Assembly: GCA_976551045.1 (NCBI GenBank)
Contig: CDPCPM010000029.1
Location: forward strand, 40,920,001 to 40,984,000
Origin: Glaucostegus cemiculus
Taxonomy: Eukaryota
Direction of reading: 5' to 3'
DNA: 64,000 nucleotides
Position 1 is the stretch's first letter. Each line of letters begins with the position of its first letter. The position numbers and the translations under genes were made by a program. The notes beneath the pieces were generated by a model. That model was not told the origin of the DNA, did no database searches, and saw only the letters and a program-made list of their open reading frames with translations. Of the stretch, positions 9,505 through 64,000 are shown piece by piece.

Positions 9505-10410
9505 CCTGCAAGAAGAAGGTCCTCCACCAACCTGCCTTCCAACAATAAAGCTTCACAGTAAAACCTTAGAAAACATGGTCCAATGCTTATATCTCAAAAG
9601 CCATCTCTCAGCAAAGCGGATTATCAATAGTGAAATTCACTGTTACCTTCAATTCACTAGCACAGCCTTTGGTTGACTGAGGAAAAATGTGATGGAAAAA
9701 TCAAAACTGCAGACCTAGCACAAAACTCAATCTTTGTCAAGCAGCAATAACCCCTGCCCTCCTCCTACACGCTTCCGAGATTACCTCAATGGACTTGAAA
9801 GATACCACCAATGCCATTTCTGGGTAAAATCCTCCAAATTCTCTGGAAGGATAGGCAAATCAACATCATTGTCTTCTCCCAACATTCCATATGGGTATCC
9901 TAGTTACACTTGGTTTGCACTCCTAACACTGGGCTCCTGAAATAGACACACTATTCTGAGCTGTGATATGGGTAGATATTATCAGGTGGATGGAGAAAAG
10001 TATCTGCTCAAAGCCTCCTTGAAATAAAAAAAAAAGCACTAACTCAGATGAAGGGTCTTGACCCAAAACTTCAAAAGCCCATTTCCCTCCACAGATGCTG
10101 CCTGACCTACTGAGTTCTTCCAGCATTTTGTTTGTAACCCCATTACCTCTTTGGAATCCTTGGACCATGACTGCTCAAAGTGGAGCGCCACCACACGGGC
10201 TGATATTGAGAACCATGAGTCAGTGCATTAAGGGCATACAGAAGCCCAGTGTAAGTGACAGAAGTAGTGCACCACCTCACAAATTCCCTACATGCCCACT
10301 CTGTCAGGATCTGCCTACCCATCAGTGACAGAGTCTGTGATGCCCACATTGGCCTCAGTCACAGGACACAATCAGAATGAAAGCAGGTGGCCCTCAACCC
10401 TCATGAACAG
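9505..10410 (+). mobile_element. RTE-clade LINE 3' relic, interrupted by a Penelope terminal fragment
   Basis: LERYHQC..KILQI.W.DR-type motif near 9790-9860 and C-terminal WESL.HD.SKW / C..HIGL remnants at 10150-10370. The Penelope repeat lies at ~10040-10135. Confidence 0.55.
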
Positions 10411-13400
10411 TCTATGTCAGACAACATGGGAAAAATTCAAAAGTGAAGACAGGAGAAAGAACAGTTTAAAATTTTCTTCTGCCTGATTAGTATTCACCTG
10501 TGAAAGCAGCCAAGCACAAACTATTGAACTCTTAAAAGGTGTGCAATGAAAATCTAAGATGTTATTTTGATAACACATATAGCACCAATGCTGGGCATGC
10601 AAATGTGTCAGAGACAATTGCAATAGCAGATTAAACTTTCTGGATTTATTAAAGATAGAAGCCAGCAAGATCCATTTCACAGGGTCTTAGCAACCACCAG
10701 TCTTGATCAATCCAGTAATTTATCTTAGCATTGTTGCCATTTGTGCAGAAAGAGGAAACAGCTAAAGTAGTTCAGCACTAACCACAAGCAAAAATGAACC
10801 ATGAAATATTTAGCACCTTGTTAATATAGCAGGGTTCTAATACTGAAAATTACTGCAAACTAAACCTGCAATTGAGGGGAAATGAGTTAATAGCAAATTA
10901 TGTTATTCTGTTTATAGATCACTAAAGTTTTGACATTGTGTGATAAATGCTTGTTCTTGGAACATGGGAGAAAATTCCTTTCTATCAGAAAGTTTTCACA
11001 GTTGTGCATTATTCAGTCATAGTTGAGCAATACAACAGACTTTTATACTTTTATTTTCTGGGATCACAACAGATATTCCTGAAAAAAAATTTCTGAAATC
11101 CAAATTCCTACAATTTAGATTCTGCTTTGCTGACTAGTTCACTGTTGGCCATACAAAAGTCATCAGGACTCAGAATATATTATAACTGCATTTTCCATGT
11201 TAAAAATAATCCTACATGTCCTGAAAATTTTGCAATCAAACTGGTCCAATGGCTCTTGAATGCGTACAAAGATTCTGCACTCACTTGTGCATTAGCTGTA
11301 TTTCCCAAGTCAGAGTTAATACCAATGTCAAAACATTGAAGTTGAAAAAACTGAAATAGTCGTAAGATGCAAATTACAAATATGCATCTCCCCTTAAGGG
11401 TGCTACAACATCCTAACCAAATTCAATACAGGCCAGATCATTAGATACACCTAATGGAGATGGTGGATATAGATAAATATTTGAAAGATCAAGGAATTGA
11501 GGCTTATGGGGAACTGGCACAGAAGGGTGGAGACCAGCACAGCTCAGCCATGACCATATGGAATGGCAGGCCAGGTTTGAGGGGCCAAGAGGGGCCACTC
11601 CAATTTTCCATCTCTAGTGAGATTCCAAGAATATTCTACAAAGTGTTTATAATTTTAGAAGAAACAGAATAGAATTTTCAACCAAACCAAATATGATGCC
11701 TAAACAAGGAAATCTTCACTCCACTGCACTTTAGGATTATATTCACTTTACACCAGAACAATTCAGTAATTCTTCTGGTTTTGAAAAGCAAGATTACTAA
11801 CTCAAAACCGATGTCAATTCAGAGTAATTATACACTTTAATGTCCACAAGATTGAGACAGACTTAATTCTCTTGTTTCTTGCTAACAGAAATGACGCCTG
11901 TATATTAAACTGCATTTTAATCATTACTTCAGAGCACTACAGCAAATACAGTAACCCACGTGCTACTTGTTTTGGCCCAAGAGATTTTCAATACTTTAAC
12001 AATTTGCAAAATAGTATTACCAAATATTGCTCCATCAAAAATTACAAGTATCAAAAATAGCTCAGAAACAGCAGAAATTTGTGAAGACTGTAGAGAAAAA
12101 AAAAGTATACTGTGACAGGTGTTCAAAGTTTCTAGTCTGTCCCAAGTTTGCAGCACATTTATAAAAAACTGCACCGGTGGTTGCCGAGGCATACATTCTG
12201 CAATTTATTTTCAAGTTGCTCACTACCACCAGTAATGGAAACTCTTCCACGGTTTGACTTGCTGCTTTATGCTTTCTAGCAGTGAGTCATCTTCCATTAA
12301 AGACTTCCACACAGTGAAATTAGAAGTGCAGTAAAACAATTAAATAAATTTAACATCTTAATTGCAACTTCTGAATGTTCCTAAAGCGATGAACTTCAGA
12401 AGTACAAACAACTTATGTTGGCCTTTTCTTTTGCTTCTAAAAAAATTACAAAATTCTTCCAATTATTATCAAGCTCAATGTAATCAAAGCAATTGGACTG
12501 GTACAGAGATTGGGTTGGAGCCATAGAAACACTACAAAGCATAAGTATCAGTGCACAGAATATACAAACGCCCCCTGCACTTCTAAAAGGATAATAAACT
12601 GGTGGCCTATCCATTTAACTTCCTCTAAATCAGCATTTTGTTGAGCAAGGTTGAAGTAGATGTGAATGGGGTACAACAGGATCAGGCAAGTTGATTGAGC
12701 TGACTGCCTCTGTGCTGCAATTTGAAGTTTACTTTGCAGATCAGAGTCCAAGTAGCAATTTAAGCACAGGGCTCCAACAACTATCAATTCTTTCCAAAGC
12801 AGCATCTCTGAATTTCAATGATTCCCATAATTGTTCCTCTAGAAAGCTGTTGAATACCATGGTCAATCTGAAGTATCAGCATCTCAACTAGCTTCTATCA
12901 GTTTCATTAAAGAATTCCTGTATTGAGGCAGTCCTATTCACCAAACTTACAAGTATTTTAATGTACCACTTTATGTATTGTTCATTGTATCCTCTTGAAT
13001 ACCATATTTGTTCTAATATATGCTGCAAAGCTTTCTTGGGCATATTACACATATAAAATCTACAAGACACCACTGCTCACACATCTTCTGTTGGGAAGTG
13101 AGCCAGTTAAGACCAATATAATGAACTAACCAGAGTTTTGCTATACAAATCACAGAAGATTAAACAAGCTGTTTTCTAACACTGGCAGCTATATTGGATA
13201 TTTCAAATCTCAGTGTACCAAGCTCTGGACTGGTCAGAAGATACAAAAAGAGCATTGTTACCAGTACAAAAGTGCTCTGTTGAATGAACAGACTTATTTG
13301 TTTACCTGCCTACTTCAAAAGGGACAAAGCATCACAAGACTAATCAGAACCAGCAGCCGAGAAAAGCTGGTGCTGGATCAGAGGATGAATTCCAGGTCTT

Positions 13401-13774
13401 CCATTGGGTCATTACGAAGTTCACATAAATCCAAGCAACTTGAATCTGCACGACAGGGTATATTAATTTGGAACAAGGGTAGGGCCCTGGCCCGTTAAGC
13501 CTGCCCCATCATTCATCACAGCTGATCTGAATGTAACATCAACTCCCATACAAATCCCAGAAAACTTTCACACACTTGCTTATCAAGTATCTATCCACCA
13601 CTGCATTAAAAATATTCAGTCTGCTTCCACCACCCTTTGAGGAAGAGTTCCAAGGATTCCCAAAAAACTGTGCTTCATTTGTTGTAAGTGGGTAACCTTT
13701 TGTATTTCCTTTAAAAACATGTTTCCTAGGCCTAGATTCCTTCACAAGAGTAAATATCCAACCAAATCTATACA

Positions 13775-15898
13775 ACCATCAAAGATGCCTTCCGAGCCAC
13801 TCCTCCCTCTCAATTTGGTACATTTGACCACCAGGCTCTGCTCCTCCTCCCTGCATACAAACAGAAACTGAAGCGGGAGGACCCGGTACAGAGAGTCATG
13901 CAGTGCTGGTCTGAGGATACAGATGAGCTTCTACGCGACTGTTTTGAGTCAGTGGACTGGTCCATGTTCAAACACTCAGCTGCCAGCCTCCATGAGTATG
14001 TCACCACCATCACGGACTTTATCAGCAAGTGTGATAAAATGTACCAAAGAGGACAATATGGGTGTTCTCAAACCAGAAACTATGGATGAACCAGGAGATC
14101 CACTCCTTACTGAAGTTGAGGACTGCTGCATTCCAATCGGGTGATCCTGACCTCCACAAGAAATTGAGATACAACCTCCAAAAAGCTATCAGGAATGCCA
14201 AGAGACAATACCGGTTCAAAATAGAGTCCCAAACCTGCCATCAGTTGTGGCAGGGCTTACATGCTATAATGGGCTACAAAACAAAGTCGGGCAGCATAAT
14301 CAACAACAGCGCATCCCTTCCTGATGAGCTTAACACATTCTATGTGCGTCTTGAACAGAAGGGGAGTGGATTGTCACAACCCACCCTGAGAGCCTCCAAT
14401 ACAACAGTGGTCACCGTTGAGGACGTAAGATCAGTCTTCAGAGGAAAATATCTGGCACTGATCAGGTCCTCAGATTTTGTGCTGATCACCTGGCGGGGGT
14501 ATTTGCAGACATATTTAACCTCTTCCTGCTTCAATCTGAGGTTCTCAACTGTTTTAAGACCACTATCATCCTGGTACCAAAGAAAAACAAGGTAACATGC
14601 CTTAATGGTTACCGACCAGTGGCCCTGACATCCACCATCATGAAGTACTTTGAGAGGCTGGTTATGGCACGCATCAACTCCAGCCTCCCAGGCAACCTCG
14701 ACCCACTGCAATTCGCCTACTGCCAAAACAGGTCTACGGCAGGTGCCATCTCCCTGGCCCTACACTCAGTAAAGACACCTAACTACGTTAGACTATTGTT
14801 TATTGACTACAGCTCCACCTTCAATACTATAATTCCAAGCAAACTCATCATCATACTCAGAGACCTGGGACTCAACACCTCTCTCTGTAACTGGATTCTT
14901 GACTTCCTGATCAACAGACTGCAATCAGTGAGGATAGGCAGCAACACCTCCAGCACAATTATTCTCAACACTGGTGCCCCACAAGGCTGCATCCTCATAT
15001 ACTCTACTCCCTATATATTCATGACTGCATGGCCAGATTCTGCTCTAACTCCATTTACAAAGTTTGCAAATGATACCCCCATTGTAGGCCTATCTCAAAT
15101 AATAATGAGTCTGAGTACAGGAAGGAGATAGAGAGCTTAGGTGATATGGTGTCATGACAACAACCTTTCCCTCAATGTCAACAAAACAAAAGAGCTGGTC
15201 ATTGACTTCAGGAAAGGGGGCGGTGTACACGCACCTGTCTATATCAGTGGTGCCGAGGTCAAGAGGGTTGAGAACTTCAAGTTCCTTGGAGTGAACATCA
15301 CCAACTACCTATCCTAGTCCAACCACATAAGACGCCATGGCCAAGAAAGCTCACCAGCACCTCTACTTCCTCAAGAGGCTAGAGAAATTTGGCATGTCCC
15401 CTTTGACACTCACCAACTTTTAGGATGCTTTCTATTGTGCATCGCTATCTGGATGCACCACGGCTTGGTAAACCAGCCTCCCCTCCATGGACTCTTTCTA
15501 TACCCCTCACTGTCTTGGTGAAGCAGCCAGCAAAATCAAAGACCCCACCCACCCAGGTTATTCTCTCTTCTCCCATCGGGCAGAAGATAGAGGAGCCTGA
15601 GGGCACATACCACCAGGCTCAAGGACAGCTTCTATCCCACTGTGATAAGACTATTGAATGGTTCCCTTATACAATGATTTGGACTCTTGACCTCACAATC
15701 TACCTCGTTGTGACCTTGCACCTTACTGTCTATCTGCAATGCACTTCCCTGTAGCTGTGACACTTTACTCAGTATTGTTATTGTTTTTACCCTGTACTAC
15801 CTCAATGCACTGTGTAATGAATTGATCTGTATGAACAGTATGCAAGACAAGCTTTTCACTGTACCCCAGTACAAGTGACAATAATAAACCAATACCAA
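13775..15898 (+). mobile_element. Rex-Babar-type LINE (second family), frameshifted, inserted in a CR1 relic
   Basis: End of the endonuclease region (DH..LLLPAYKQKL), RT motifs [42 protein letters not shown] and KFANDT; 3' tail GTGACAATAATAAACCAATACC. Confidence 0.9.
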
Positions 15899-18329: not shown

Positions 18330-21225
18330 CCACAAACAAGCATGAGAGAGATTTCAACCACGATACAAGACTGTTAATAAAGGATGTAATCAGTACAGTA
18401 GTGAGAAATAATCTGGATTAGAACATCAAGATATTAAAATAAATTTTGGTTGAGGCAAGAAACAAGGAAAAGTCGTCATTGGTGGGATTAGCCTGTGGGT
18501 CTCTTAACCATAGCTACACTACAGGACAAAATACAAATCAAGAAATAACAGGGAGCTTGCATGAAAGGTACTGGAATTATCGTGGGTGATTTTAATCTTC
18601 ATAAACATTGGGGGGGGGGGGGGGGATATCAAATTGACAAAGATATGCCAGACAACAAGTTCACAAAATATATTCTGAACAGTTCCTTAGAATAATAAAT
18701 TGTTGAACCTACTAGGGAACAGGCCATTTTAGATCTGATCACACATCTTAAAACAGGATTAATAATTTCATAACACAGAATTCTCTGCGAAGAATGATCA
18801 TAAAATGATGTTTGAATTTCTAGCATCTTAAACTTCAGAAATTCCAATATTATAAAAGGCAGAGTTGACCAAAGGAGATTGGGAAAATAGGTCAACAGTC
18901 AATAGATCAATAATCCAGGAGTGGCCATTCTAGAGTCTTATTGAGATTCAACATGACTTCTTTGCTTTTGTACTCTATGCTTACATTTATAAAACTCAGT
19001 CCTTGGGAGAATGAGACTGGGAAAATAATGTATGGGAAAACGAAAACAAATAGATTCGCTGTTCCTTCATGACAGAAGATACTAAAAGCTTGCCAAAAGT
19101 AGTAGAAAAATATCAAGGGAGACAGGGACTTCTATCAATTCTCTCTAGAGAAAAGGCAAACTACTGAGATTAAACGCAGACAAGATCCCTGGATCAGATG
19201 GCCTATACCCTTGGGTCTTAAAAGATCCAATAAAGAAGTGATGACAGAGTTAGTGAACATAATAATCATGCTTTTCCCAAATTCCATAGATTCTAGAAAT
19301 GTCCCAGTCAGAAGACCACAAATACAAAACAAACAAAACAAGATATGCTGGAAAAAGTCAGGTCAGGCAACATCTGTGGTAAGAGAAACAGTCAACATTT
19401 TAAGTCCATGAACCTTCGTCAGAAATGGGAAAGAGAGAAAGATACACACAGGCTAGTTTTCAAGAAGGAGAGGAGGTGGGGGAACAATGTATAGAACAAG
19501 GGGAATTTTGTTTTTATATCATGTTGGCTCTGTTTTTGTTTAAATCCTACTTGTACAAGTCCCACAACTTTACCATTACAACACATTACACAAACCAAAG
19601 CAGCTTAAAGCACTGATTAGTATTATGAATAAACCATTTCAACTCATCCTATCACAGGCATCTCCTTCTCCTTCCCCCCATCTCTCCCCCAAATTCTCTC
19701 CTACTGAAAACTAACTTGCACCTCTCTCATTCCCAGTTTGAAGAAGGGTCACAGGCCTGAAACATTAACTGCTATTCCTTCCACAGATGCTGCCTGATCG
19801 GTTGAGTTTTTCCAGCATTTTGTCTTTTTTAAATTTCAGTTGGCCATCATCTGTATTTTGATTTTCACAAAATAGAACAAACTATTAAAAAAAAAACCAC
19901 AGGGGAACAAAGCATAAAACTATAGGCCAGCTAGCCTAACATCTGTCAATGCAAAAATGCCAGCATTCATTACTAAGGAAGCGGTAACAGGATATTTAGA
20001 AAATTGAAATACAAACAGGCAGCGACAATGTGTCTTTATAAAAGGAAAATCCTGTTTGGACAATTTATTAAGGTTCATTAAGATGGTACAAGCAGAGTAG
20101 ATAAAGGGGAAAATAAATGGATGTAGTGTATTTGGATTACCAGAAGGCATTCGTTAAGGTAACAGATAATAGGTGAGGTAATTATACATATAAGCTCAGA
20201 TCTCTTGGCACTGGGGGTTAATGTTAGTGTGGACAGAGCACTGGCAAACAAAATCAGGATAAACACGCCTTTCTGGGGTGGCAAAAATGGAACCAGTAGC
20301 TGACACAAGAATCTATGCCTCAACCACTTATAATTATCTACTTAGATGAGGGAAGCAAGTGCATTTTAAACAAATTCACTGGAGGATTTAAAAAAAAAGT
20401 GGGCAAGAACATAGGCTGTAAGGACTACACACAGAATCTGCAAGGGATTACATAAAAGTGAAGTGACTGAGGAAAAAAAAAATCAGAGAAGTATGACATG
20501 GATAAATAAGGTGATCCATTTTGGGAGGAAGAATAGAAAAGTATCATATTGTTTTGATGAAGAGACACTAGAATAGCACTGAACAGGGATCCAAGTGCCT
20601 TTGTATAATAAACACAGATACCATATAATACATTTGAAGAGGAAATGATATATTGACAGTCAATGCAAAGGGAACAGAGGACTAATAAGGGAAGTCTTGA
20701 ACTCATTCAGGGGCCTGGGGAAACCTGGAGTATTGCAGACAATTTTTGTCTCACTTAAGGAAGAATATACTGAGGTTGGACTTACTTCAAAGGAAGTTCA
20801 CTAGGTTAAATCCTCAGATGAAAAGTCTTATGAGCAATAGTTGAACTGATACTCACTGGAATTTAGAAGAATGAGAGGTTATATTATTGAAACAATTTTC
20901 ACAGAGCTTGGCAGGGTAAATACTGAGAAAATATTTCCACTTATGGTGGAATCTTGAACTAGGAGACACAGTTCCACAGTAAGTAGTTGCCTAGCAAACA
21001 CAGGTGGGAATTTCTTCTCTCAGATGATCATGAGTGCTGGAATTCTCTACCCTGGGAAGCTGTGGAGCTAAGTCATTGAATATATTCAACGCAGACTGAT
21101 TTTTCAATTACAGGGGAATTGACAGTTATGGGGAATGGGTAGGAAAGTGGAGCCGAGGCTAGATTAGGTCAGTCCCAATCTTATTAAACTGTGGAGCAAA
21201 TTTAGGGGCTACGTGATCTTCTTTT
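18330..21225 (+). mobile_element. Long degraded CR1 LINE (endonuclease to 3' end) with nested insertions
   Basis: GDFN motif (18586), PTREQAILDL, NYRPASLTS (19918), KGKSCLDNLL, VVYLDYQKAF, LEFRRMRG and a CR1 3' UTR. Many stops and frameshifts. Confidence 0.8.
19325..19866. mobile_element. Penelope-derived fold-back mini-element nested in CR1
   Basis: Terminal repeat (hammerhead-like motif + CAGATGCTGCCTGA...TCCAGCA) on the minus strand at ~19340-19500 and on the plus strand at ~19650-19866. Confidence 0.7.
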
Positions 21226-24131: not shown

Positions 24132-24308
24132 ATAAAAACAGAAAATGCTGCAAATAATCAGCAGATTAGGCTTAAAGTTGGAGAAAGCTTAAAGTTTCGG
24201 GTCTGTGACCTTCATTTTCTCTCTCTGCAGATGCTGTCCGATTTGCTGAGCATTTCTGATTTTCAATTTCTATTTCAGATTTCCAGCAGGCGCAGTTATG
24301 GGCTTTTC
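24132..24308. mobile_element. Very short Penelope-derived inverted terminal-repeat pair
   Basis: AAAATGCTGCAAATAATCAGCAGATTAGGC (minus copy), partial GGTC-ACA-GACCC-GAAAC, then CAGATGCTGTCCGATTTGCTGAGCATTTC (plus copy). Confidence 0.6.
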
Positions 24309-26749: not shown

Positions 26750-26751
26750 TG

Positions 26752-27600: not shown

Positions 27601-28240
27601 AAACAAAGGACTGCAGAACTAGATGAAAAACACTATGATGCTGGAGGAATTCAGCAAGCTAGGCAGCATCTGTGGAGAAAAGCAGGCGGTCAACCCAAGT
27701 GACAATAATAAACCAATGCTAGGTAACCATTTTGCAGAACACCTGTGCTCTGTCTGTAACTACCATCTGCATCTTCCCATTGCCAGTCACTTCAACTTCC
27801 CCTCCCACACTATCACTGATATGTCAGGAGAATTCTAAGCACAAACTGGAGGAACAGCATCTCATTTTCCATCTTGGAACCTTGAAGCCTAACACTATGA
27901 ATATTGAATCGTCCCACTTTAAGTAACCCCCACACCCCTTCACACACACACACACACACCCAACCATACCTCTTCTTTTCTTCCCTTTCCTAGCCTTTTT
28001 CTACCCTCTTTTTTTTTTAAATCTCTCCTTACCTTTGACCCTGCATCTATCCATCACCACCTTGTGCCCACCCCATCTCCCCTCTTTTGTCCAGCTATCA
28101 CTGCTCTGCTTTTCCCTCCAATATATTGGGCTTCCCCTTTTCCTATCTTCAGTCCTCACCAGAAATGTTGACCACCAGCTTTTCTCCACAGATGCTGCCT
28201 GGCCTGCTGAGTTCCTCCAGCATCATAGTGTTTCACATCT
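27601..28240 (+). mobile_element. Penelope-like element 3' fragment with inverted terminal repeats
   Basis: GIY-YIG C-terminus (LGNHFAEHL; KLEEQHLIFHLGTLKPNTMNIESSHFK*), pyrimidine-rich UTR, and a 74-nt inverted repeat 27621-27694 / 28167-28240 (67 of 74 match by eye). Confidence 0.85.
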
Positions 28241-31200
28241 TCCTACTTTATGCAGTCTTAGTCATCCAACAGATCCTTCTATCCCTCTGTCACATAAATC
28301 TCAAATTTCCCTGGAATACAGCTCTACTTTTCACTCCCAACAACTCCATGTGATGGGAAGTTCCAAGCTCTAACTACTGAGTAAAAGAGGTTTCTCCCAA
28401 ACTCAATACTGCAGTCATCAGCGACTTTTGTTTTAAGTAGGTCTGCAAGTTCTAGTCTCCCCACAAGTGGGGAACTCTTCTCTCCGAATATCTTTCACTA
28501 TTTCAGAGACTTCTGTCAATTTACCTCAACAACTTAATCATAATGATTATAATCTTTTAGATCTAGTATCAAAATTGCAAATTTATTTTGGACTCTTCTC
28601 TGGTGCATATTCCTTCTCCCTGCTTGTGGAGACCAGAGCTCAGCACAGTACACCCTAGTGTTATACATCGCTCCACATCCCCCACCATCCCCACCTTTCT
28701 TCCAATTTTCCCATTAGCTCTTTCATGTCCAGAAATAGGTGATGGGGCCTTGGTCTGTCATCTCATCCAAGCGATAGCCATCACTAGTCAAAACAGCAAA
28801 GATGTCAGCCTCTTTACATACGGAGCTACTAAGCACACAGATCTATTAAGCACAATCTCAAAAATGTCACAGAGGTTGAATAATTTTACATTTCAACACC
28901 ACCAATAAATAGGATCAAAAGCAATAAAACACAGACAGCCATTATTTAAGAATGGATCTTATTTTAAAGGTAAACTTAAGCATGGCCTTTAAGACTACAA
29001 CTTGAATGTTAAAGGTTATATAATTTCATTTGATTTATATCATGCATTAATTAGCTCTATCTCTGATCACGCTTGCTACACCAATTCATAATAAAACTAG
29101 TTAAGAATAAAGGAAGAGAGATGAGGAGTTATCAGAAGCTTCATTGAAGAGGCAGGTGATGGGTTTAGAAAGGGAATTCTAGTAAGTGGAGCCCAAGAGA
29201 TCCAAGGAAAGGGCAAGTATTAATGGAGTGGAAGGAGGGAACTGGGTTATAATGCACAAGAGGGTCAAGGAATAGAAAATATAGTGCTTGGTGAGGTTCA
29301 AAGGTTATGGAACATCTAGGGGTGAGATCTGGGCGAATTTAAAAAGGATAATAACCTTATTTTTTTTAATTGGTTGAGGCATCTTTAATCTCAAGATTAG
29401 AGGTCAACTTCTCCCAATTCAAGCATTCACGTCTCTTGCTATTATGAACAAGTTGCAAAATGTGTGTTAGTTGGGTTAATATCAGCACATCTAGCCACAT
29501 ACATAAAAACCCACTTAATCTAATCCTTAGCCTCCTATGGTGATTTGACACCAGTTAATTCCCATGGTAGGAGTCAGAGTACCTGACTTCCTCATGTCTG
29601 TCATATTAATGACTATTATAGACTGGGCACACAGGATGATGGATCCACACCTGTACTTCTAAGAAATACTCTTAAGGTGGTGAAATCAATGGCATGAGTC
29701 ACATAATTTCCTCATCAAGATGCTGTGGGCATATCCACTTCCAAGCCCTACAAAGAACTCTCTTTCACAAAAATCATATGTAAATCACAAGCACAAAGTA
29801 CCACAAATTATAATTTGTGTTTAACCATGGCTCAGGAACACAAGATTAAGACCCAGGATGATACCAAATGCAGCTGTACAGAGATAATATGCTTTGTGCC
29901 AGCCCAGTTATAGGCAGCAGATGAAGGGTCTCGACCCAAAACATCGACTGTCCATTTCCCTCCATGGATGCTGCTTGACCCACTGAACTCCTCCACCTTG
30001 TGTTGCTCCATGCACATCCTAGTTAATTAGAACCTGCTCTGTAATGGTCACCTCAGGAGTACAACTCTGCCAGAGCATATCCATTAAATGACTAACAACA
30101 TAAGAGAGCCAGACACTTTTTAAAAAAAGAACCAAAGTGCTCAACAGCACAAATGAAATAAATAAAGTCTTGATGTTTAATTGAAAAAAATCAAAGAGCA
30201 GCAGATACCAGAAATCTGCAATAGAAACAATAAGTGACAGATCAGGCAGCATCTCTGGAATTAAAACAGAGTGAATGTTTCAGGTCAAAGACCTTGATGC
30301 ATGATGGGAGGTAATGGTGACAGCAAGGCTACACTGAGGGAAGAATGTTCAAATATTAATTGCACAAAATGCAAATGGTCCCTTAAATGTAGAAGATAAA
30401 AAATATACGTGCCACTATGGGTACACAAAGCTTTGAGAGACATTATGTGTAGTGTGTTATTATAAATAACTCATCCTACAAAAGGAATGCTGTGCCAAGA
30501 GAAAATTGAACAAAGAGTCATCAAGATAATGCCTTGGATGTAAAATTTTGTGCAAGACCAAGTCAATTTTTGATTTTATTCCATGAGCTGGGGTGAAAGG
30601 GTGATGTGGTTTGTTATGTGCTTCAGAGCATGACTCATGGAAAAGATTAGACTTAGTACACAAATTCATGACATCACAAACATCACTGGAAGGGTAAAAA
30701 CTGCAAATATATTGAAGATGTAGGAGCAGAATTAGGCCATTCAGCCCATCAAAATATGTTCATACATCACAGTACAAAATGTTAATTTTAAAATCACATG
30801 TAACCAATATCAGCAAACTATTTTCTTGTCATGCATATCGACAACCAATAAGACCAAAAAGTATTCACACAGGATACAGCCACTCCAAGTGCAGTGGCAG
30901 GAGGGCCATGAACTGTGTGTGATCTTTCCCCACAGAGCCTTCGTAGCAGCTGCACCAGGCTTCACTGTGTCACTCAGCTTGAAGCCCTGGACCTTTGAAC
31001 ACATCAGATGGTGTAGACAACTACTTGAACTGGGAAACCAGCAAATTTCAGGCAGACCAAAGTGCATCTTTCATGGAATTGATAATCTTCCAGCAGCAGT
31101 CACCATTTATCTCAGTGTGTATCCCTGGGAACAGAACTCCACATTAGGCAGCTGTGCAGGATGAACCTTGACAAAGACCCCTTCCTCCCTTTCCAAACCT

Positions 31201-44112: not shown

Positions 44113-44444
44113 GTGTTCAGAAACTGGGTTTGCTTAATCTTTTCTCAAGTTCCAGATCAACTCCATTTTGGACTTGAATGTCCCATGCTTACTAAATGCA
44201 CCCCACAATTGCTAGAACTTCAGTATTTGACTGCCTACCAGCTTAATTCAAAAGGAGAAAATGCTAGAAACACTCAACAGGTCAGGCAGCATCTAGAAAG
44301 GGGAACTGTTAACATTTTTGGTGCAGGACCTTTCATAAAACAATGAACACTAATATTTAAAAACATCACATCATCAGAATAATATTCTGCCTTTGCTCTT
44401 CCTTAAAGTGAATTATGTCACGTTTCCCCACATGACAATCTACC

Positions 44445-46862: not shown

Positions 46863-47577
46863 TGCCCTCACGAAGAAAGCTCAGAAATGCCTCTACTTCC
46901 TGCGGAGACTGAGGAAAACGAACTCCCATCCCTCCGTCATGAAAACCTTTTATAAAGGGACCATTGAGAGCATCCTAACCCAATGTATCACTGTTTGGTT
47001 TGGAAGCTGTTCAGCTGCTGGGCGGAAGTCCCTCCAGAAGATAGTTAGGGCTGCGGAGTGGATCATAGGTGTCTCGCTTCCATCCCTCGCAGACATATAC
47101 AAAGACAGTTGTGTGAGGAAGACCAAAAGCATAATGGCCGACCCTTCTCATCCCTCCCATCACCTCTTTACAATTTTGCCATCAGGGAGGAGGCTTAAAT
47201 GTATCAGGGCAAGAACGACCAGGCTGAACAATAGCTTCTTTCCGCAAGCCATCAGAACTGCAAACTCTCTCATCCCTCCATCTTCCTTGTTAACACTAAG
47301 AGATGCTAGGTGCACAGAAATGCACCAGCACTTTAAATGCCCGCCACCAGCCCGTTCACCTTAATAACTATTATTTATTTACTGGCCATTTTTAGTTTAA
47401 TCTGCGTATTAATTTAATTTTAACTTCTGTAGTTTTTAATGTTTATTCTGTTAAGTGTGTCTGTGTGTCTCTGTTGGTTGTTACTTAATGGGACGAGCAC
47501 CTGAGGAGGACAGTATCTCGCTCCTATGCATACTATGTATGTATATGGTTGTGACAATAAAACTGATTCTGATTCTG
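46863..47577 (+). mobile_element. Rex-Babar-type LINE, young family copy 3
   Basis: Open ORF ALTKKAQKCLYFLRRLRK...CPPPARSP*; 3' UTR and ACAATAAAACTGATTCTGATTCTG tail as in the copies at 8605 and 37195. Confidence 0.92.
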
Positions 47578-48532
47578 GTGAGTACTTCCTACGATTTTCC
47601 ATTTTTATTTCAGCCTAGTTATCTAAATCTCATAAATGCAAAGCACTTGTACCAAGAATTAAACTCCTAAATCTGTCCTTCTTTGACTCTATATGGCCTA
47701 TTTGTTGCCTGCCTGTCATACAGCACAGAAACAAGCACTTTGGCCCACTAAGTCCATGCCTGTCACAAACCACCCATTTATATTAATCTTCCATTTATCC
47801 CAATCTTTTAAAATTCTCCCCACATTTTAGGGATGTGCAACACAGAAATGGGCCCTTTTAATCTATCTGTCCACACCAATAATGATGCCTATCTCATTTG
47901 TCCACATTAGGTCTGTATCCCTCTATGCTTTTCCTATCCAAGCACATATCCAAATGCCCTTTAAACTTTAATCGTATTGCTTTGCACCCAAACTTAAACA
48001 CCACTGATGATGTATTATACTGGGGAGGTATGGAAGGAAGTAATCAAAAAAAAGGTTAATCAAAGATTGCAAACTTTAATGGCAATAACTGAGATTAGAA
48101 ATTTTGTACAATTTGCTTAAAAATTGATTAAGATCTTTTCAACAATTGTGACCATTCCCAGAATGAGTAATATTAAGTAGGAATGATGAGAAAGTAGAAA
48201 CAGTGCTTCTGCTTTCTATATAAGCTGATCTTTAACAGTTTCAATTTTGTGCCCAAGTGCAAGACTTAAATTAGACTCAAGTCAGAAACTGGAAATATAT
48301 TAAAGACAAATGCAATTTGGCTTATGAGTCAAGTTAAGAAACATTTATGTGACTGCTCTCAAACATACGGTCAGTTTCATCAGTTGATGAGCTAAAGAAA
48401 TAACCAGCCAATACTTTATAAAATCATGGACTCCGATATTTCCTTTAAAACACAGGGTTGATTTTTTTTCTCAATTCACTATTTGTGAGAAAGACTCAGA
48501 GGAAATCTACTTAGCAAGGAGAATACCATATT

Positions 48533-50590
48533 GAAAAAACAAGATGCTGGAGGAACTCAACAGGCCAAGCAGCATCCATGGAGAAAAACAGACGGCCGGC
48601 ATTTTGAGTCAGGACCCTTCTTCAGACCTGAAGATAGGAAAAAGGAAGCCTAATACATGCGGGGGGGAGGGGTGGAAGGAGGAGAAAACAGGGCAGTGAT
48701 AGGTGGACAAAAGTGGGTACAATGTGATTATAGGTAGATGCAGGTAAGAGATAGTAATAGGTAGATGCAGGGAAGGAGGGGAGAGCAGATCCACCAGGGG
48801 ATAGGTCACAGGTATGGAGGCAGCCACCTCATAGGGGGAGGGGTGGAGAGGGAAAAAAAAAAGAATGGACAAGGAGAGAAAAAAAGGCTAGGAAAGGGAA
48901 GAAAGAGACATGGCGGGGGGGGGGGGGTGAGAGGGGAAAGAACGAGTTTGGTTTAAGGTGGGAGAATTAAATGTTCATGCCATTAGGCTGTAACATCCCA
49001 AGGTGGAAAATGAGGTGCTGTTCCTCCAGTTTGCGTTCGGACTTCTGGCAGTGGAGGAGGCCAAGGACTGACATTTCAGTGATGGTGTGGGAGGGAGAGT
49101 TGATGTGACTGGCAACAGGGAGATGCTGATTGCAGTTATGGACGAAGCGCAGGTGCTCTACGAAACTGTCACCTCGTCTGCATTTGATCCCACCAATGTA
49201 GAGGAGGCCACACTGTGAGCACCAAATGCAGTAGATGATATTAAGGGAGGTGCAGGTAAATCTGTCTCACCTGAAAAGGACTGTTTGGGTCCCTGGATGG
49301 AGGTGGTGTAGGGGCAGGCGTTACACCTATGGTGGGAGCAGTGGAAAATCCCTGGGGTAGGACCAAGGTGGGTGGGGAGAGAGGAGTGAACTAGTAAGTC
49401 ACAGAGAGACCAGTCCATCTGAAAGGCAGAAAAGGGTGGGGAAGGGAAGATATACTTGGTGGTGGGCTCCTGTTGGTGACAGTGGAAGTGGTGGATACGT
49501 AGGCTGGTAGGATGAAATGTGAAGACAAGGGAGACCCTATCCTTGTTGGGTCTGGGAGGGGTTAGGGTGAGAGCAGAGGTGCAAGAAATGGCAGAGACGT
49601 GGGTGCAAACTCTCTCGACCACAGCAGGGGGAAAACCACAGTTAGTAAAGAAGCTGGACCTCAGATGTCCCAGAGTAGAAAGCCTCATCATCAGAGCAGA
49701 TGTGGAGGAGGCTGAGAAATAGAGAGAAAGGGACAGCGTCCTTGCAAGAGAGTGTGGGAGGAGCTGTAATCAGGTAGCTGTGGGTTTGTAGAAGGTGTCA
49801 GTGGATAAAGAATCTCCTGAGCTGAAGGGATCGGCAGAGAGGGATTAGAGATAGTCCAAGTGAATTGGAGAGCTGGGTGAAAATTGGTGAAATTTATGAA
49901 ACTGTTGACTTCCGCACGGGTACAAGAGGTGGGACCAATGCAGTCATCAATAGAGCATTGAACGAGTTGAGAGATGGGGCCAGAGTAGGCTTGGAACAGA
50001 GACTATTCAATCTAGCCAGCGAAAAGACAGGCATAGCTGGGGCCCCATGCATGTACCCATGACTACACCCTCAGTTTGTACAAAGTGAGAGGAATTGAAA
50101 GAGGAATTGTTTAGAGTGAGGGTAAGTTCAGCCAGGCAGACACCAATACCAATACTGGAAGGGGTTTGGTTCTGTCTCTGGTCGAGAAAGAAGCGTAGGA
50201 CAGTAAGGCTGTCATGATGGGAAATGGAGATATATATAGGGACTGGATGTCCATGGTGAAGATGAAGTTGTGTGTGCCAGAGAATTAAAGTTATGGAAGA
50301 GTTGGAGAGTGTGTCAGGTGTCACAGATGGAGGTGAGAAGGGATTGGACTGGGGAGAATAGCTCTGAATAGCACACAGAGACAATAGGTCTGACGGGACA
50401 GCCCTTCTTGTGGATTTTGGGGATAGAAGCGGGCAGTCCTAGGTTGCAGGACTATCAAGATGGTAGCTCCCGAGGTGATGAGATCTGTGATGGTGCAGGG
50501 GATAACATCCTGGTGGTCCTCGGTGGGGTCTTGGTCCAGGGGTAGGCAGGAGGAAGTTCTGAGAGTTGGCATCTGGCCTCTGCAAGGTAC
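48533..50590 (-). mobile_element. Penelope-like element (RT + GIY-YIG), degenerate
   Basis: RT remnants PRTARFY, LAELTLTLNNSSFNSSHFVQTEGVVMGTCMGP; linker SLVFTFHPTSL; GIY-YIG (YCIWCSQCGLLYIG at ~49235-49190); terminal repeat with hammerhead-like motif at 48600-48630. Confidence 0.88.
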
Positions 50591-51160: not shown

Positions 51161-51194
51161 TGGCAACACCACAAAACCCTCCCAATGCATGGGC

Positions 51195-51985
51195 TAGATA
51201 GGCAAACCAGGAGGTCAGGCAGTATCCATGGAAAGAGGGAGTTAACATTTCAGGTTTGAGACCCTTCATCAGAACCAAGAAAGAAAGAAAGAAACAAATT
51301 AGTCTCCCCATTGCATTCCATTTGTTCCACCCATTGCCCTCCCTTACCTCAATGGGTGTAAGGGAGGGAATTTCTCTGATAGAGTGAGTTAATGTGGCAG
51401 TTAAGACTAGTTAAGCTCCTCTGTGTGTAATGTGTTGCTAAGGTTGCAGGCCGGACCATGCAAATGAAAGAAAAAAGGTGGATAAAAAGGGATGGCAAGC
51501 AAAAATAGCCAGTCCTGATACAAACAGAAAGAGTGAATGTTATCTAAAATTGGAGAATTTGATATCAATTCCACAGGCTGCAATATGCCCAGATGAAAGG
51601 CAAGGTGTTGTTCCTTGAACTTACATTGGGCCTTGGGCTCCTGTCACAGTGCGGGAGGCCATAGAGAGATCAGAGTGCAAGTGGGATGGTGAATTAAAGT
51701 GGCAGGCAACTAGAAGCTCAGGGTCACTCCCATGGATTGAGATCAGGTACTCCACAAATCGATCATGGTATGTGTTTGGTTTCTCCAATGTAGAGGAGGC
51801 TGGATTGTGAACCTCTGATGCAGTACACTACATTGAAAAGAGGACAGATCTGGACCAGATCCTTGGACGACAGGAAGAGAAAAGGCAAAAGGACCTCCTG
51901 CGGTTGCATGGGAAAGTGCCACATGGCAGGGAGGAGACAACAGGGATGAAATGGGAGAAATCCCTTCAAAGTGCTGAAAGGGTTA
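51195..51985 (-). mobile_element. Penelope-like element 3' fragment
   Basis: NVVYCIRGSQSSLLYIGETK (GIY-YIG) in ORF 51763-51969; terminal repeat with intact CTGATGA...GAAA core at 51240-51276. Confidence 0.8.
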
Positions 51986-52569
51986 GGGTGTCAATTTGCA
52001 GGCAGCAGGGCAATTCCCCGCCCTTGTTTGTTCTTCCCACCATCTGAGATTATTAGCTTCACTGCTACTTTGATTTGGCCCACATCTTCATTCCTTTAGT
52101 GCTATTCCACTTGCTTTTATGAACCCATGCTGGGGTTATATTAAAGTGTTCAGGCTGAATATCAATTTATTTAAAACCTGTTACTTCATGGGGCTGGCTT
52201 GGGAGGAGGGGATCAGTAATGCTCAGATTAATGGCTCTAGTTTACATTAAAGTTTGTCCCCATTTGTCTGAATTATACTTCAGGGGATTGGTTATTGGTG
52301 GGAAGGGGAGGGAGAGGGGTTTGTTAGGGAGTTTTGGGGCTTTAGGATGACGGTTACATGGTTAGGGTCAGGGGAAGGGAATAAACCAAACACAGTGCCT
52401 CTCCAAAGCTAACATTCCTTGCACACTCAACCAACACTGCAAGGTGGGCCACATCAACTGCATGCCTGACACTAGACACCTGAAACAAGCACTCTACCGC
52501 AAGCTCTAGGAGGCCAGAGCAAATATTTTGAGAATATTCTCAGTCTCCTTGAAAAGAAATGCATCATCA

Positions 52570-54228
52570 GTGCATCTGCCCTCAAGACGAGGCTTTCTGT
52601 TCCAGGACATCTGAAATGTCCTGCTTTTTCAGGAAGTGTGGCTTCCCTTCTACAGTGCTTGATGAAGCCTGACCTCAGATCTCCTGTTTCTCATACTTCT
52701 GCTCTCACCCCTCCTCCTCCCAGACAGAACAGAGATAAGAGTTCCCCAGTCCTTACCCTTCACCTTTTGAGCCTCTGCATCCAGCACACCATCCTTCATC
52801 ACTTCCACCAGCTGCAGCAAGATCCCCACCACCAGCCACATCCCTTTCTGCATTCTATGGAGGCCACTCCCTTCGTGACTCCCTGGTCCACTTCATGCCT
52901 CCCCACCAACACCTCCCTGATCCCTGGCACTTTCCCCTGCCCTTGCAATAGATGTAACACTCATCCTAACAGCTCGTCCCTCACCACCATCCAGGGACCT
53001 AAACAGGCAAAGTTGGGTTCATAAAAGCAAGTGGAATAGCACTAAAGGAATGAAGGTGTGGGCCAAATCAAAGTAGCAGTGAGGCTAATAATCTTCCAGG
53101 TGAGGCAAAGGTTCACGTGTACCTCTTCTAACCTTGTCTAATGCCTTCAGTGCTCCCGATGTGGCCTCCTCTACATCGGCGAGCGTTTTGTAGAACACCT
53201 ACACTCAGTCCACAATGGCCATCCCAAGCTCCCAGTTGCAGACCATTTCAACTCCCCTTCCTATTCCGACACAGACCTGTCCATCCATGGCCTTCTCTAC
53301 AGCCAGGGCAAAACCCAACACAAACTGGAGGAGCAACACCTTGTATGCTGCCTGGGTAGTCTACAACTGGCATGAATATTGAGCTTTCCAATTTTAGGTA
53401 AAACCCGCTTTGCTTTTCCCTCCCTCTTCCCCCCACTTTTCCCTCCTAATTCTCTCGCCCTCCTACTTTTATTCCCTTTCCTACCCCCACCCCAGCTCCC
53501 CCACCGATCTTTGTCCCCTTCCTCCTCCTCGCACCATCCACCCTCCTCCCCACCCCCCACCCCCAAAAAATCTGGTTCCAACTGTCGTTCACCTCTTCCC
53601 TAACGGTTCCCATTCTCATCTCTACTGATCTGAATCCAGTTCTGGTAGTGCTTTGTGTTCCTGCTTATCTCCCTCTAGCAGCTGTCTCCCATCTGCACAC
53701 TCCATTCCGCCCCCCCCCCCACCTCCACCTTGCCCCATCTGTTGTTTTTTTTAAAGTTTTTTTCTCCTTCTCTCTGCATTCCTCCATCTATCAATCACCT
53801 GCCAGTCTTCCAACTCCACCCCTGCTCAGCTTCTCTACCTGACACTACCTACCCGTCATCTCACACCCCTCCTCAGTCCACCAATGACCTCGAACCCTCT
53901 CTCAACACTCCCCTTCTCCTCTTTATACCGGCCATCCCGCCTCTCCACTCTTAGTCCTGATGCAGGGTTTCAACCCAAAGCATTGACAATTTTTTTCCTC
54001 CCAGAGATGCTCGAGGACAAACATTTAAGATTAGAGGGGGAAAATTTAAGGGAAAACTGAAATCTGCATTAAATGGCTCTTTAAAATAGCCACTGAATGA
54101 AACCCATGTTAGAACACAGAGCGCAGTAACAGGCCCTTCGGCCCACGATGTCTGCACCAAACACAATGCTGAATTCCTCCAGCAGATTGTTGCTCCAGAT
54201 TCCAGCATCTGCAGTCTCTTGTGTCTTC
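52570..54228 (+). mobile_element. Penelope-like element 3' half with templated insertions
   Basis: PVLTLH..SLCIQHTILHHFHQLQQDP, PGTFPCPCNRCNT, CSRCGLLYIG, KLEEQHL; C/T-rich UTR; terminal repeat at 53950-54228. Confidence 0.85.
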
Positions 54229-55174
54229 ATCACCATCACTGACTGACAGAGCCCCTGGTCTGAATGCTCAACGTGGGATAAAAGCTGCCTAGTGGCATGC
54301 TGAATGCTCAAGTCTCCACAGCAGAATACATGGAGCTTTGCCCAAACCCATCTGCTTGTGGCAGAATCCACATAGGGCACTTCAGCCACCTCAGAGCCTA
54401 AAGAACTAGAGTAAAAAGCAAGTTATCCTTGACCCTAAAGGAATGCTTAAATATTTAAAGTAAAACATGCAGAGAGCAGCTGTGCAACTTTTTAAAATCA
54501 GGCAGCATTCTTTTGGTTCCAAGTAAACAAGGTTAAAATATGGAATGGAATGTAGATCATTTGAATTTGGATAAAGCTGCACCCACAAGATTACCATAGG
54601 GAATAGTGTGGAACTTGCTCTTTCAGTGACAAATAGCTATTTATAGAACGTGGCAAAACCCAAGATTTTAAAATGATTTAAGAATTTTAGAATTGCTTTC
54701 TTGTTCAAATGATAGGATTACAGCTGAACTTCCCCAAAGCTAAACTGGCAATAAAAAGGATCTTTCCATCACATTTTAGTCTATTAGGAGTATACAGCAT
54801 TTATACAATAACTATGTTCCATCACTAATAACTGAAAATCCAGGAAAACCCAGCACCTGCAGAAAAAGAAACAGTTAATATTTCAGGTCAAAGACCCTTC
54901 ATCTGAACTGTGGAGCTGAAGTAGAGTTTAATTGCAATGAAATGTACCTAAGAGTTTTCACCTTCCTGACTGCTCCCACCTGACAAAACAGGCAAGACTG
55001 GAAATGATTAAAGTGCAACTTTACATTGTATCCAGTCACAATTTCATTGTAGAAGCATATGCATGCAGCTTGCTGAATTTCCAGTTTATTTTTGTGTGGT
55101 ACTGCATTAACATTGCAGAAAATTGAAATCTGCATTAAATGGCTCTTTAAAATAGCCACTGAATGAAACCTGTG

Positions 55175-62010: not shown

Positions 62011-62231
62011 GCTTTAAATTATTTTGTGTTTAGCTTTATGAACCAATAGAAAACATTTCAAGACATAAATGGGCTGAAGTAACTGCTATAATTCTAGAGT
62101 CAGCAAAGAAATAAAGAAACCAGGTTTCCTTTTAGCAATCTGAATGCTAAAACTTCAGTAATTTCCAACTCCTAATGGATCACTGTACTTAGTTAAGAGA
62201 CAGTCTTTTATAAGATTAAGTTGCTGAGTTA

Positions 62232-62241
62232 CCAAATATGG
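62232..62241. promoter_or_regulatory. Perfect CArG box CCAAATATGG
   Basis: Matches CC(A/T)6GG in unique sequence, with MCAT-like GGAATG (~62332) and CATTCCA (62415) nearby. Confidence 0.3.
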
Positions 62242-63011
62242 AGACCAAGTGGCTAACGTACAGCATAAAACATAACCAATGTAATTTATTAAACATCCTA
62301 AGGGAATCCACACTGGGAAATCGCCTAAAGAGGAATGAATCCTCTATCAACCAAGTATGTAAATATTTTCTTTCACATTTTTCCAAAATCACGCTTCCAG
62401 TTAGGGAGGTATATCATTCCACAAAGCAAATTAGCTCAAACCAAAATGCTTACTAGCAGAGCAGAAACAAAACAGCCAAGGAATAATTAAGTTAATGCCA
62501 AAGTAAAATTAACATCCTAGATTTTTAACAGTGAAACAGAAAACAAATTCCAAACTATTTGAAAGGTGCCACAATTTTTTTTTTTTTTACACACACAGCC
62601 AGCACTGAGGAACAATACAAACATGACATGTAAAAATCTTTTTGTTAGCAGAGAAATATTTACCACATGTTGTAAACACATTTCTCAACCTATTTATATA
62701 GAGGTTTAACCCAAAAGAAAATGGATAAAATTTGAAAAAAGATGACAAACTGAAAAAATATTTCTGTTACTCTTAGGACCTGCTACCTTGACCCCAAAAT
62801 TTTCATTTTGTTGTCATAGCAAGATACATCAAGGAAACGGGCCTTTCAGCCCGAGTCTGTAACAATCATTAAGCACCCATTTTTAAACTAATTCTACCCT
62901 AATTCATTTTATTCTTTCCGTGTTTCCATCAATAACCCCCACCCCCTAGATTTCATCATTCACCTACAGACTAGTAACAATGCCCAATTAACCTACAAAC
63001 ATGCATATTTT

Positions 63012-64000
63012 GGAGACACAAGAGATTCTGCAGATGCTGAAATCTGTAGCAACACACACAAAATGCTGGAGCAACTCAGCAGGTCAGGCAGCATCTATGG
63101 GGAGAAATAAACAGTCAATATTTCAGGCCGAGACCCTTCATCCAGTGCTGGAAAGGAAGAGGGCAGAAGCCAGAATGAGGTAGTCAGAGGAAGGGGAGGA
63201 GTACATGCAAGCAGGTGATAGGCAAGAGAGAGAAGGTAGGAGGGTAGGGTAGTGGGTTTGAAGTAGAAGGCCAAGAGGTGATAGGTAGAAGAAGCAAAGG
63301 GCTGAAGGGAGCGGGAAACCAGTAGGAGAGGGCAGTGGACCATGGAATAAGGAGGTGGGGAATTGATAGGCATGTCATGAGGGTGGGGGGGAAGACATGT
63401 CAGTATGGGAGTGGGATGTGAAATTGAAATGGATGGCCACCAGAAGATCTTTGCTTTAGTGGTGGACGGAATGAAGGTGTTCAATGAAGCGGTCACCCAA
63501 TCTGCGTTGGGCCTCACCGATGTAGAGGAGGCTGCACCAGATGCAATAAATATTGCTTCGTCAGACACCTTCATTCTGTCCACACACTAAAGCGAAGATT
63601 TCCCAGTGGCCGTCCACCTCAATTCCACATCCCACTTCCATACCAACATGTCTATCCATGGCCTCCTCTACTGCCACGTGGAGGCCAGATGCAAGGTGGA
63701 GGAACAACACCTCATATTTCGCCTTGGTAGTTGCCGACCTGACAGCCTCAATGTCGATTTCTCCGGTATCCCCTCACTTATTCACCACCCCTTTCATTTT
63801 CTCCTTTGTCTTCCCTCATTCCTGAGGCCCCTTCCCCCACCTTCACAACCTGTCTATCTATTCCCCACCTCCTTCCCTTTATTCCATTGTCCACTGCGCT
63901 CTCCTCCCAGATTCCTCCTCCTTCAGCCCTTTGTCTCTTCTACCTATCACCTCTCAGCTTCTTATTCTCCCCCCTCCCCCACCCACCTGAACTCGCCTAT
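63012..64000. mobile_element. Penelope-like element, head-to-head inverted structure, running off the window end
   Basis: Minus arm 63012-~63555 (terminal repeat, UTR, GIY-YIG LLYIGEAQRRLGDRFIEHL); plus arm from ~63575 repeats the GIY-YIG C-terminus and UTR. Inserted in a V-SINE 3' relic (62815-63010). Confidence 0.85.

Follow-up and report, generated by a model that had tools for sequence, protein, structure and literature searches.

Probable remnants of a minimal hammerhead in a Penelope-like family of Glaucostegus cemiculus, and a second family stacked at chromosome ends

A dispersed repeat in the genome of the cartilaginous fish Glaucostegus cemiculus raises the question of whether the short hammerhead-like motif that it carries is the remnant of a ribozyme and, if so, what that ribozyme did for the element that bears it. 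The repeat was noticed in a stretch of 64,000 nucleotides (contig CDPCPM010000029.1, positions 40,920,001 to 40,984,000 of the forward strand; this whole stretch is referred to below as the window), where a sequence-only reading had described nine copies of a minimal type-I hammerhead motif in the terminal repeat of a Penelope-like element (PLE) family. Our analyses of the window and of the genome indicate that the window motif is probably a decayed remnant of a minimal hammerhead in a Penelope-like family, here called family A, and that a second family, called family B, is stacked at chromosome ends.

All nine copies are present at the places and on the strands that had been given for them. 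With 36 copies from outside the window as its basis, a covariance model places them among its top ten window matches (E 5e-10 to 0.17), with E<0.003 in seven of the nine, and a hidden Markov model (HMM) seeded on the nine copies, which is circular for those nine, identifies 20 pieces of the family A repeat in the window at E<=0.02. The core sequence CUGANGA is kept in 3 of the nine copies, the sequence GAAA in 4 and the palindrome ACGU in none, and no window copy has these three elements together, as the consensus to which they had been aligned would have it (0/9). Rfam scans gave no hammerhead match in the window, in intact copies or in the full-stem form described below, and the remaining window matches were all far under their gathering scores.

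Genome-wide data bear out that a Penelope-like family of a cartilaginous fish carries, in its 3' terminal repeat, a motif like a minimal type-I hammerhead. The repeat is found downstream of the endonuclease, and on the same strand, at all 19 loci that were picked by protein (the query's own locus excluded; 3 are partial), and the same arrangement is seen in 18 of 20 longer loci. Within the window, the remnant at 50422-48952 terminates in the 48630 motif, and the remnant at 52559-53366 lies upstream of the 53953 motif. A 525-amino acid (aa) frame of family A has reverse transcriptase (RT) motifs, a CX4CXXC linker, and CCHH and GIY-YIG motifs, and its Pfam matches are weak and under cut-off. An RT combined with a CX2-5CXXC-type linker and a GIY-YIG domain with CCHH is a mark of Neptune or Nematis elements (Craig et al., 2021, PMC8557442). 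The family A copies are 5'-truncated, 2.6 kb or less in length and ~80-84% identical to one another; they often have an inverted upstream piece, and their 3' ends cluster near +95 and at +125 or beyond relative to the motif. The inverted upstream copies and the two 3' end classes agree with PLE structure (PMC8557442).

Two other proposals for this family were not supported. The family A element is not terminated by its ribozyme, as it runs ~95-130 nt past the cleavage site and shows no pile-up of 5' boundaries there. Tandem, retrozyme-like members, which had also been suggested, were not seen in family A, where a second same-strand copy within 1.5 kb is present at just 1 of 30 loci; such members do exist elsewhere in the genome, in a different lineage, viz. 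family B, for which the window was searched and from which it is absent.

The pattern of the intact family A motif has 2,386 exact matches in the 2.85-Gb genome, part of which sit in duplicated segments, vs. 0 for the reversed control. Across the family A subfamilies, which differ in their loops and flanks, the core, the extra A and the ACGU palindrome are constant, and in 38 copies of the GUU/AAC subfamily the stems are conserved and the loops variable. Both an extra nucleotide lying after position 9 and before 10.1 and a palindromic 15.2-16.2 stem without loop 3 are present. Stem II, previously drawn with 5 bp, has 4 bp closed by a loop of 4 nt; to form a fifth pair, the loop would have to shrink to 2 nt. 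The proposed covariation of stem I from GUC/GAC to GUU/AAC is a real property of a subfamily: among the first 100 of 718 matches the closing pair is C-G in 91, U-A in 5, U-G in 3 and C-A in 1 (Fisher p=4e-6), and this represents one evolutionary event. The companion claim for stem II (GGGUU/AACCC) falls, since it concerns the loop-closing position, where there is no true pair, and it is better accounted for by a GGGUUU variant plus CpG decay (L002, L187, L189). Between families A and B, double changes are seen in 9/9 pairs and in 0/500 shuffles. CpG damage does dominate among the mismatches, which affect 34% of CpG sites vs. 6% of positions elsewhere in 32 unselected A1 copies, and the CAGAUGA core of the copies at 10045, 29918 and 54872 is instead an inherited subfamily state.

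Most of these features have precedents. The minimal hammerhead ribozymes (min-HHRs) described from PLEs have an extra nucleotide after A9 and a palindromic 15.2-16.2 stem, and they occur as many dispersed single copies and as opposite-strand pairs (Cervera and de la Pena, 2014, PMC4209133); they show no activity as monomers and low activity as dimers (PMC4209133). Because the features of family A have thus already been described for PLE min-HHRs, the comparison with a viroid hammerhead made earlier is unneeded and the motif is not novel. Family A further shares with them the CUGANGA/GAAA core, the G10.1-C11.1 pair, a helix I that is short, dispersed single copies in the thousands that are linked to truncated PLEs, and opposite-strand pairs 100-700 bp apart (PMC4209133). 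It differs from them in that helix II has 4 bp vs. 7-8 in schistosomes, and in the presence of A at position 4 in one subfamily and of G-U at 10.1-11.1 in another (PMC4209133). Cartilaginous fish are not among the min-HHR hosts named in the available portion of the same paper. The C-terminal GIY-YIG domain, the CCHH motif, the CX2-5CXXC linker, the partial tandem or inverted copies and a tail of 30-40 bp are points of likeness to the endonuclease-bearing (EN+) Neptune PLEs (PMC8557442).

The place of the motif behind the RT and GIY-YIG regions, its conserved core, one compensatory change, the inverted partial duplications, the two-step 3' end and the neutral decay are directly supported by these data. 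While family A was active, the motif, which lies ~100-130 bases inside the 3' end, likely trimmed a tandem precursor RNA as a protein-assisted dimer; dimer cleavage would take place via the ACGU palindrome, and reverse transcription would start within uncleaved RNA, downstream of the ribozyme. For the anole PLE it has been reported that the hammerhead is protein-assisted and is unneeded for insertion in vitro (PMC11167929). That the element ends past the cleavage site and shows no 5' clustering there, that the CAGAUGA subfamily spread, and that the anole hammerhead is dispensable in vitro together indicate that the hammerhead of family A was likely dispensable for copying.

Changes at U4 impair hammerheads, and a dispersed subfamily with A at this position (CAGAUGA) has been amplified in family A; 913 pattern matches have a nucleotide other than U at position 4, and A is found in 91 of the first 100 listed. 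This is one of a number of observations that weigh against a catalytic past for the family A motif or against its assignment. There is also a subfamily with a mismatch in stem I; the core plus ACGU is retained in just 3 of 61 copies chosen without the pattern; and the hammerhead is the minimum-energy monomer fold in 1 of the 6 family A copies tested. Inside family A alone there is one real double change, and the alignment behind the covariation test was selected by pattern, with most of its double changes coming from three family B rows. None of 58 family A copies has its 5' end at the predicted cleavage site, where a genomic trace of cleavage would lie, and no full-length copy with two direct pseudo-long terminal repeats (pLTRs) is present among 20 long loci. 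No intact ORF is present among 150 scored copies, so that family A looks extinct. The core decays much as its flank does (6.2% vs. 4.8%) and, together with the CpG hits, this indicates that inserted family A copies are under no visible selection. The linker would make family A Neptune-type, an assignment that, like that of family B, is based on motifs and not on a tree, the CX4CXXC linker being found also in Nematis. In co-folding, the dimer hammerhead was not favoured and self-complementary stem II duplexes competed with it.

Several of these points would be expected if the motif were a fossil or a non-catalytic RNA element, such as a protein-binding or RT-positioning hairpin, derived from a hammerhead in a lineage for which cleavage was unneeded. 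The spread of the core-mutant subfamily speaks for this explanation, as do the facts that each copy with both ORF and motif came from RNA that was uncleaved at the motif and that 5' ends are unclustered there; in addition, hammerhead mutants leave insertion by the anole PLE unimpaired in vitro (PMC11167929), and 8 of 9 dimers from Xenopus showed no cleavage (bioRxiv 2026.07.22.740005). We nevertheless regard it as unlikely, because the core, the extra A and ACGU are constant across subfamilies with different loops and flanks and across lineages whose RTs are 29% identical, and because a full three-helix hammerhead occupies the matching place in the autonomous family B element. A chance look-alike within an ordinary dispersed repeat, for which the lack of an Rfam hammerhead match and of any intact window copy might be cited, is highly improbable and has been largely refuted: the motif is at the known location of PLE hammerheads, and in an independent lineage all stems have changed around an identical core, with a full stem III in one variant. 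A decayed PLE hammerhead is hence the reading of the window motif that we retain.

Some further observations on the repeat are of a local nature. The A2 copies (L004, L011, L013, L014, L016, L017, L020 and L021, on C1-C4) have a CAGGC stem I mismatch and intact CpGs; they have 0.7-1.4 kb of downstream sequence in common and therefore lie within a larger duplicated unit. Very short back-to-back inverted pairs, consisting of the terminal repeat only, are found at 24135-24254 in the window, near position 8380 of L117, and in L184 and L191. A lone core match at L076:1500-1545, with a weak stem II and without stem I, is likely due to chance or to a third decayed family.

The independent lineage is family B, which was found by freeing stem II in the search pattern in order to test covariation; this gave 10,526 matches vs. 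8 for the controls. Most of them belong to a second hammerhead, which has the same core, extra A and ACGU palindrome and different stems (UUCCC/GGGAA and GCUC/GAGC), and whose minimal form is present in 9,731 exact copies vs. 0 controls. Family B comprises two kinds of unit. One, which carries the minimal form, is a small, non-coding unit of 1,115-1,274 bp, arranged head-to-tail and 98.5-99.8% identical over seven contigs. The other is an autonomous element of 7.3 kb with two ORFs, viz. ORF1 of 855 codons with a weak GDSL-like C-terminus and ORF2 of 740 codons with RVT_1 and C-terminal GIY-YIG matches above the Pfam cut-offs, CCHH and a CX4CXXC linker; the ORFs overlap at a UUUAAAC slippery site, where a frameshift is predicted. 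The family B RT is 29% identical to that of family A. There is also a relative of 740 aa with 71% identity (P0001). The 740-aa frame is open in ~97 of 141 scored copies (counted by eye), many of which are spaced 7.3-7.4 kb apart, and pN/pS (the nonsynonymous to synonymous ratio) vs. an old copy is 0.33. The two units have a 3' module in common, and direct tandems are present in the family. At the matching place, the 7.3-kb element has a full hammerhead (522 matches, 0 controls), in which stem III is of 5 bp and the predicted site is GUC; no other sequence evidence speaks as strongly for the minimal form as a true hammerhead derivative. Placement of family B among the endonuclease-less Athena/Coprina elements was considered and is ruled out by the GIY-YIG domain.

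Two features of family B copies stand apart. In L201, L204, L205, L207 and L208 (on C31, C32 and C38), a family B piece ends exactly at the predicted GUC site and is joined to an RT fragment; the sequence was read for L201 and L205. The fusion is probably one event that was duplicated later, and possibly a fossil of cleavage, which GTC microhomology could also explain. At L170:8580-8650, a GTAAG donor lies ~55 nt behind the family B hammerhead and CAG immediately precedes the ORF1 start, which suggests a short intron in the 5' untranslated region, like that of Drosophila Penelope; the small unit retains the donor.

Both forms of family B are found in polarised arrays beneath (TTAGGG)n at contig ends, and the array on C64 exceeds 1 Mb. 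In the first 8 kb of C4, (CCCTAA)n tracts are mixed with 5'-truncated pieces of the unit, and all 9 tracts come after one and the same element site, CAACCTAAC. The element-to-telomere junction at this one site occurs 604 times vs. 0 for controls. The site matches 7 nt of the telomere repeat. Within the unit, CCTAAC is present a single time, and none of four CCCTAA hexamers outside the site served as a junction at the loci examined. Among the first 100 junctions listed, strand and position agree with the contig end in 13 of 17 contigs, the other 4 being ambiguous (C72, C80) or not fitting (C39, C166). Long pure telomere tracts are distal on C10, C30, C142 and C155.

The opposite, distal junctions are variable and often begin with GGCA or GGCATGG. 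The genome has a single telomerase RNA gene (L153:1501-2025, i.e., G000:C104:1927644-1928168, minus strand; RF00024, 165.7 bits), which reads CTAACCCTAA, then GGCATGGTTC. There are 29 distinct junctions, 24 of which run into the element, and 10 of these 24 begin with 4-8 nt of the telomerase template flank (p about 1e-18), which indicates that exposed ends of the element received their caps from telomerase. At its inner end, the C4 array (L215 near 3630) has the element on one telomere repeat, followed by the telomerase flank and unique DNA, an arrangement that reads as a healed break. No family B 5' junction was found at the cleavage site, the nearest being 7 nt downstream, and 4 small-unit junctions reach upstream through the hammerhead; hence a part must also be played by templates that are uncleaved or circular, or by DNA recombination.

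The fixed 3' end, the variable 5' ends, the polarity, the telomerase capping, the intact ORFs and the shared 3' module are directly supported. On this basis we consider it probable that these telomeres are mosaics made by two alternating RTs: an active EN+ Neptune-type PLE, accompanied by a non-coding retrozyme parasite, would add to the chromosome end, and telomerase would then cap it and leave its template flank behind. The parasite would be a unit of ~1.15 kb with a dimer-only hammerhead and ~9,700 copies, amounting to roughly 11 Mb, in arrays of up to a megabase. In such a mechanism, a read-through RNA would be cut at successive hammerheads; ORF2 would prime inside this RNA where 7 nt pair with the telomere G-strand, PLE RTs being known to start internally (PMC11167929); the cDNA from target-primed reverse transcription would lengthen the chromosome end; telomerase would recap the new end; and recombination would homogenise the arrays. 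Against this stand the facts that some C4 pieces and junctions are local duplicates of one event, that the contigs were found via the junction pattern, and that interstitial copies exist, one type of which stops at the same site without telomere repeats. The telomerase signature, moreover, proves capping and does not discriminate between RT and DNA recombination as the source of the added piece.

In a rival account, the family B arrays would be a subtelomeric satellite propagated by DNA recombination alone (break-induced replication and unequal exchange), in which telomerase heals breaks and the junction arose once or a few times and was copied. The near-identity of units on seven contigs, the identical 5' junctions repeated within one telomere and the length of the C64 array are in its favour. 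It has to explain the same 3' site in at least four sequence variants, in both element types and in one interstitial insertion into unrelated DNA, the four unused perfect CCCTAA hexamers, ORFs that are intact and under purifying selection, and the element on a single telomere repeat at the base of the C4 array; recombination as the sole process thus seems to us improbable. A somewhat better case, which we still hold to be doubtful, can be made for entry into telomere tracts by GIY-YIG cutting, in the manner of SART/TRAS and not by overhang priming, followed by loss of the distal piece and recapping by telomerase. In its favour are endonuclease catalytic motifs that look intact, the interstitial copies, and the cutting of both strands by the anole PLE protein. 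After plain insertion, one would expect the 5' junction to show ordinary repeats; bases of the telomerase flank instead mark a newly capped end there, and these bases do not discriminate between a double-strand cut and overhang priming. Alternating addition by a PLE and by telomerase accordingly remains our preferred account of family B.

Like Athena, Coprina and Terminon elements, family B has polarised head-to-tail terminal arrays, 5'-truncated copies with telomeric caps, a hammerhead, a C-rich telomere match in its RNA, a predicted ORF1/ORF2 frameshift and a GDSL-like ORF (PMC8557442, PMC6431247). Unlike them, it has a fused GIY-YIG endonuclease and is found in a vertebrate, whereas these elements are without a fused endonuclease and occur in rotifers, fungi, protists and plants (PMC8557442, PMC6431247). 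Their telomeric stretch lies directly behind the hammerhead, whereas the 7-nt match of family B follows the ribozyme after ~430 nt in the small unit and after 6.4 kb in the full element (PMC6431247); degenerate repeats are found between the small-unit hammerhead and the junction site. Family B thus appears to work like the Athena/Coprina PLEs and is not a member of them, its GIY-YIG match being above cut-off. EN+ PLEs insert genome-wide with a (TA)n bias (PMC8557442), in contrast to the concentration of family B at chromosome ends and its telomere-matching end site, and the GDSL-like ORF1 resembles the esterase-bearing Neptune-like PLEs of fish (PMC5408684). Telomere-intercalated long interspersed nuclear elements (LINEs), viz. 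HeT-A/TART, SART/TRAS and anole Tx1, are alike in being retroelements within telomeres and differ in belonging to LINE clades (PMC10088271). Sturgeon GIY-YIG PLEs are bounded by telomere-like repeats; in the portion of the source available they are called degraded and randomly integrating, and they are not analysed as telomeric (PMC12031113). In the literature searched, which did not extend to Repbase and some key papers, no EN+ PLE that stacks onto telomeres is described from vertebrates or elasmobranchs.

The small unit resembles non-LTR (long terminal repeat) retrozymes in being a non-coding tandem with a hammerhead in each unit, derived from PLE pLTRs (PMC7229834). Retrozymes have been described as PLE derivatives, including one chondrichthyan case, with multimers enriched near the ends or centres of Xenopus chromosomes (bioRxiv 2026.07.22.740005). 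The 1,115-1,274 bp of the small unit compare with 51-972 bp for known retrozymes (bioRxiv 2026.07.22.740005, PMC7229834). As far as these sources go, it is also unlike them in that its 3' junction site is common to an identified partner and in that it is interleaved with telomerase repeats.

The coordinates of the features are collected in Table 1. Other sequences seen in the course of this work include young LINE 3' fragments, 91-97% identical, at 8599-9593, 37188-38279 and 46819-47577 of the window; an intact endonuclease-RT frame of 910 codons, apparently of the same LINE family, is located at L143:1433-4162, inside the family B array on C119. An older LINE RT remnant in two frames is present at 14038-15131 of the window. 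L060:3-1079 is the C-terminal part of the host DNA ligase IV, 87% identical to that of stingray, 82-84% to those of other elasmobranchs and 71% to that of chimaera, which places the host among the elasmobranchs and makes a ray likely.

Table 1. Family A features of the window (window positions) and family B arrays elsewhere in the genome
Location	Strand	Feature	Found by
10040..10139	+	3' terminal repeat of family A with a hammerhead remnant of the CAGAUGA subfamily at 10045-10072	
19333..19434	-	Terminal repeat of family A, in an inverted (divergent) pair with the 19726 copy	
19726..19836	+	Terminal repeat of family A, from the subfamily with GUU/AAC in stem I; hammerhead at 19733-19772	
27633..27694	-	Short 3' piece in inverted orientation, upstream of a 5'-truncated copy, as is typical of PLEs	
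27698..27923	+	Family A GIY-YIG endonuclease remnant	
28152..28228	+	Terminal repeat with hammerhead core deleted; terminates 27698 remnant	
29910..30015	+	Terminal repeat, CAGAUGA subfamily; hammerhead remnant 29914-29951	
30238..30294	-	Extra decayed terminal repeat, absent from the sequence-only reading	HMM and covariance model
44251..44336	-	Extra decayed terminal repeat	HMM
48530..48636	-	Terminal repeat, A1 subfamily, at end of the longest PLE remnant of the window; hammerhead 48592-48631	
48952..50422	-	Frameshifted RT, linker and GIY-YIG remnant of 5'-truncated family A copy	
51174..51284	-	Terminal repeat; best-preserved hammerhead, 51238-51278, damaged only in the ACGU palindrome	
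51543..51846	-	GIY-YIG remnant upstream of 51276 hammerhead	
52559..53366	+	RT-thumb, linker and GIY-YIG remnant upstream of 53953 hammerhead	
53945..54046	+	Terminal repeat with a hammerhead remnant at 53951-53990	
54807..54916	-	Terminal repeat, GUU/AAC stem I and CAGAUGA core; hammerhead 54871-54911	
63047..63156	-	Terminal repeat; hammerhead 63111-63151	
63393..63764		GIY-YIG remnant 63393-63551 (minus) and inverted 5' piece 63600-63764 (plus)	
G000:C4:1-183,700		Telomere-proximal family B arrays (L101, L102, L164, L165, L215)	
Ends of C10, C30, C34, C40, C64, C85, C99, C119, C138, C142, C155, C188		Family B arrays	

Family A alone adds one cartilaginous fish to the known list of PLE hammerhead hosts, and its spread core-mutant subfamily constitutes a natural test of the need for PLE hammerheads. 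The same motif led to family B, which is found outside the window and matters more than the window motif itself. Telomere-attaching PLEs are the closest relatives of telomerase and have been described from rotifers, fungi, protists and plants, without an endonuclease. The junction signature of family B is a record of de novo capping by telomerase in a germline. If the proposed account is true, a young, intact family B with its non-autonomous partner, a priming site and both hammerhead forms would bring together in one vertebrate system three questions, viz. the role of the PLE hammerhead, the enzyme responsible for the movement of retrozymes, and the way in which chromosome ends come into use by a telomerase-like RT.

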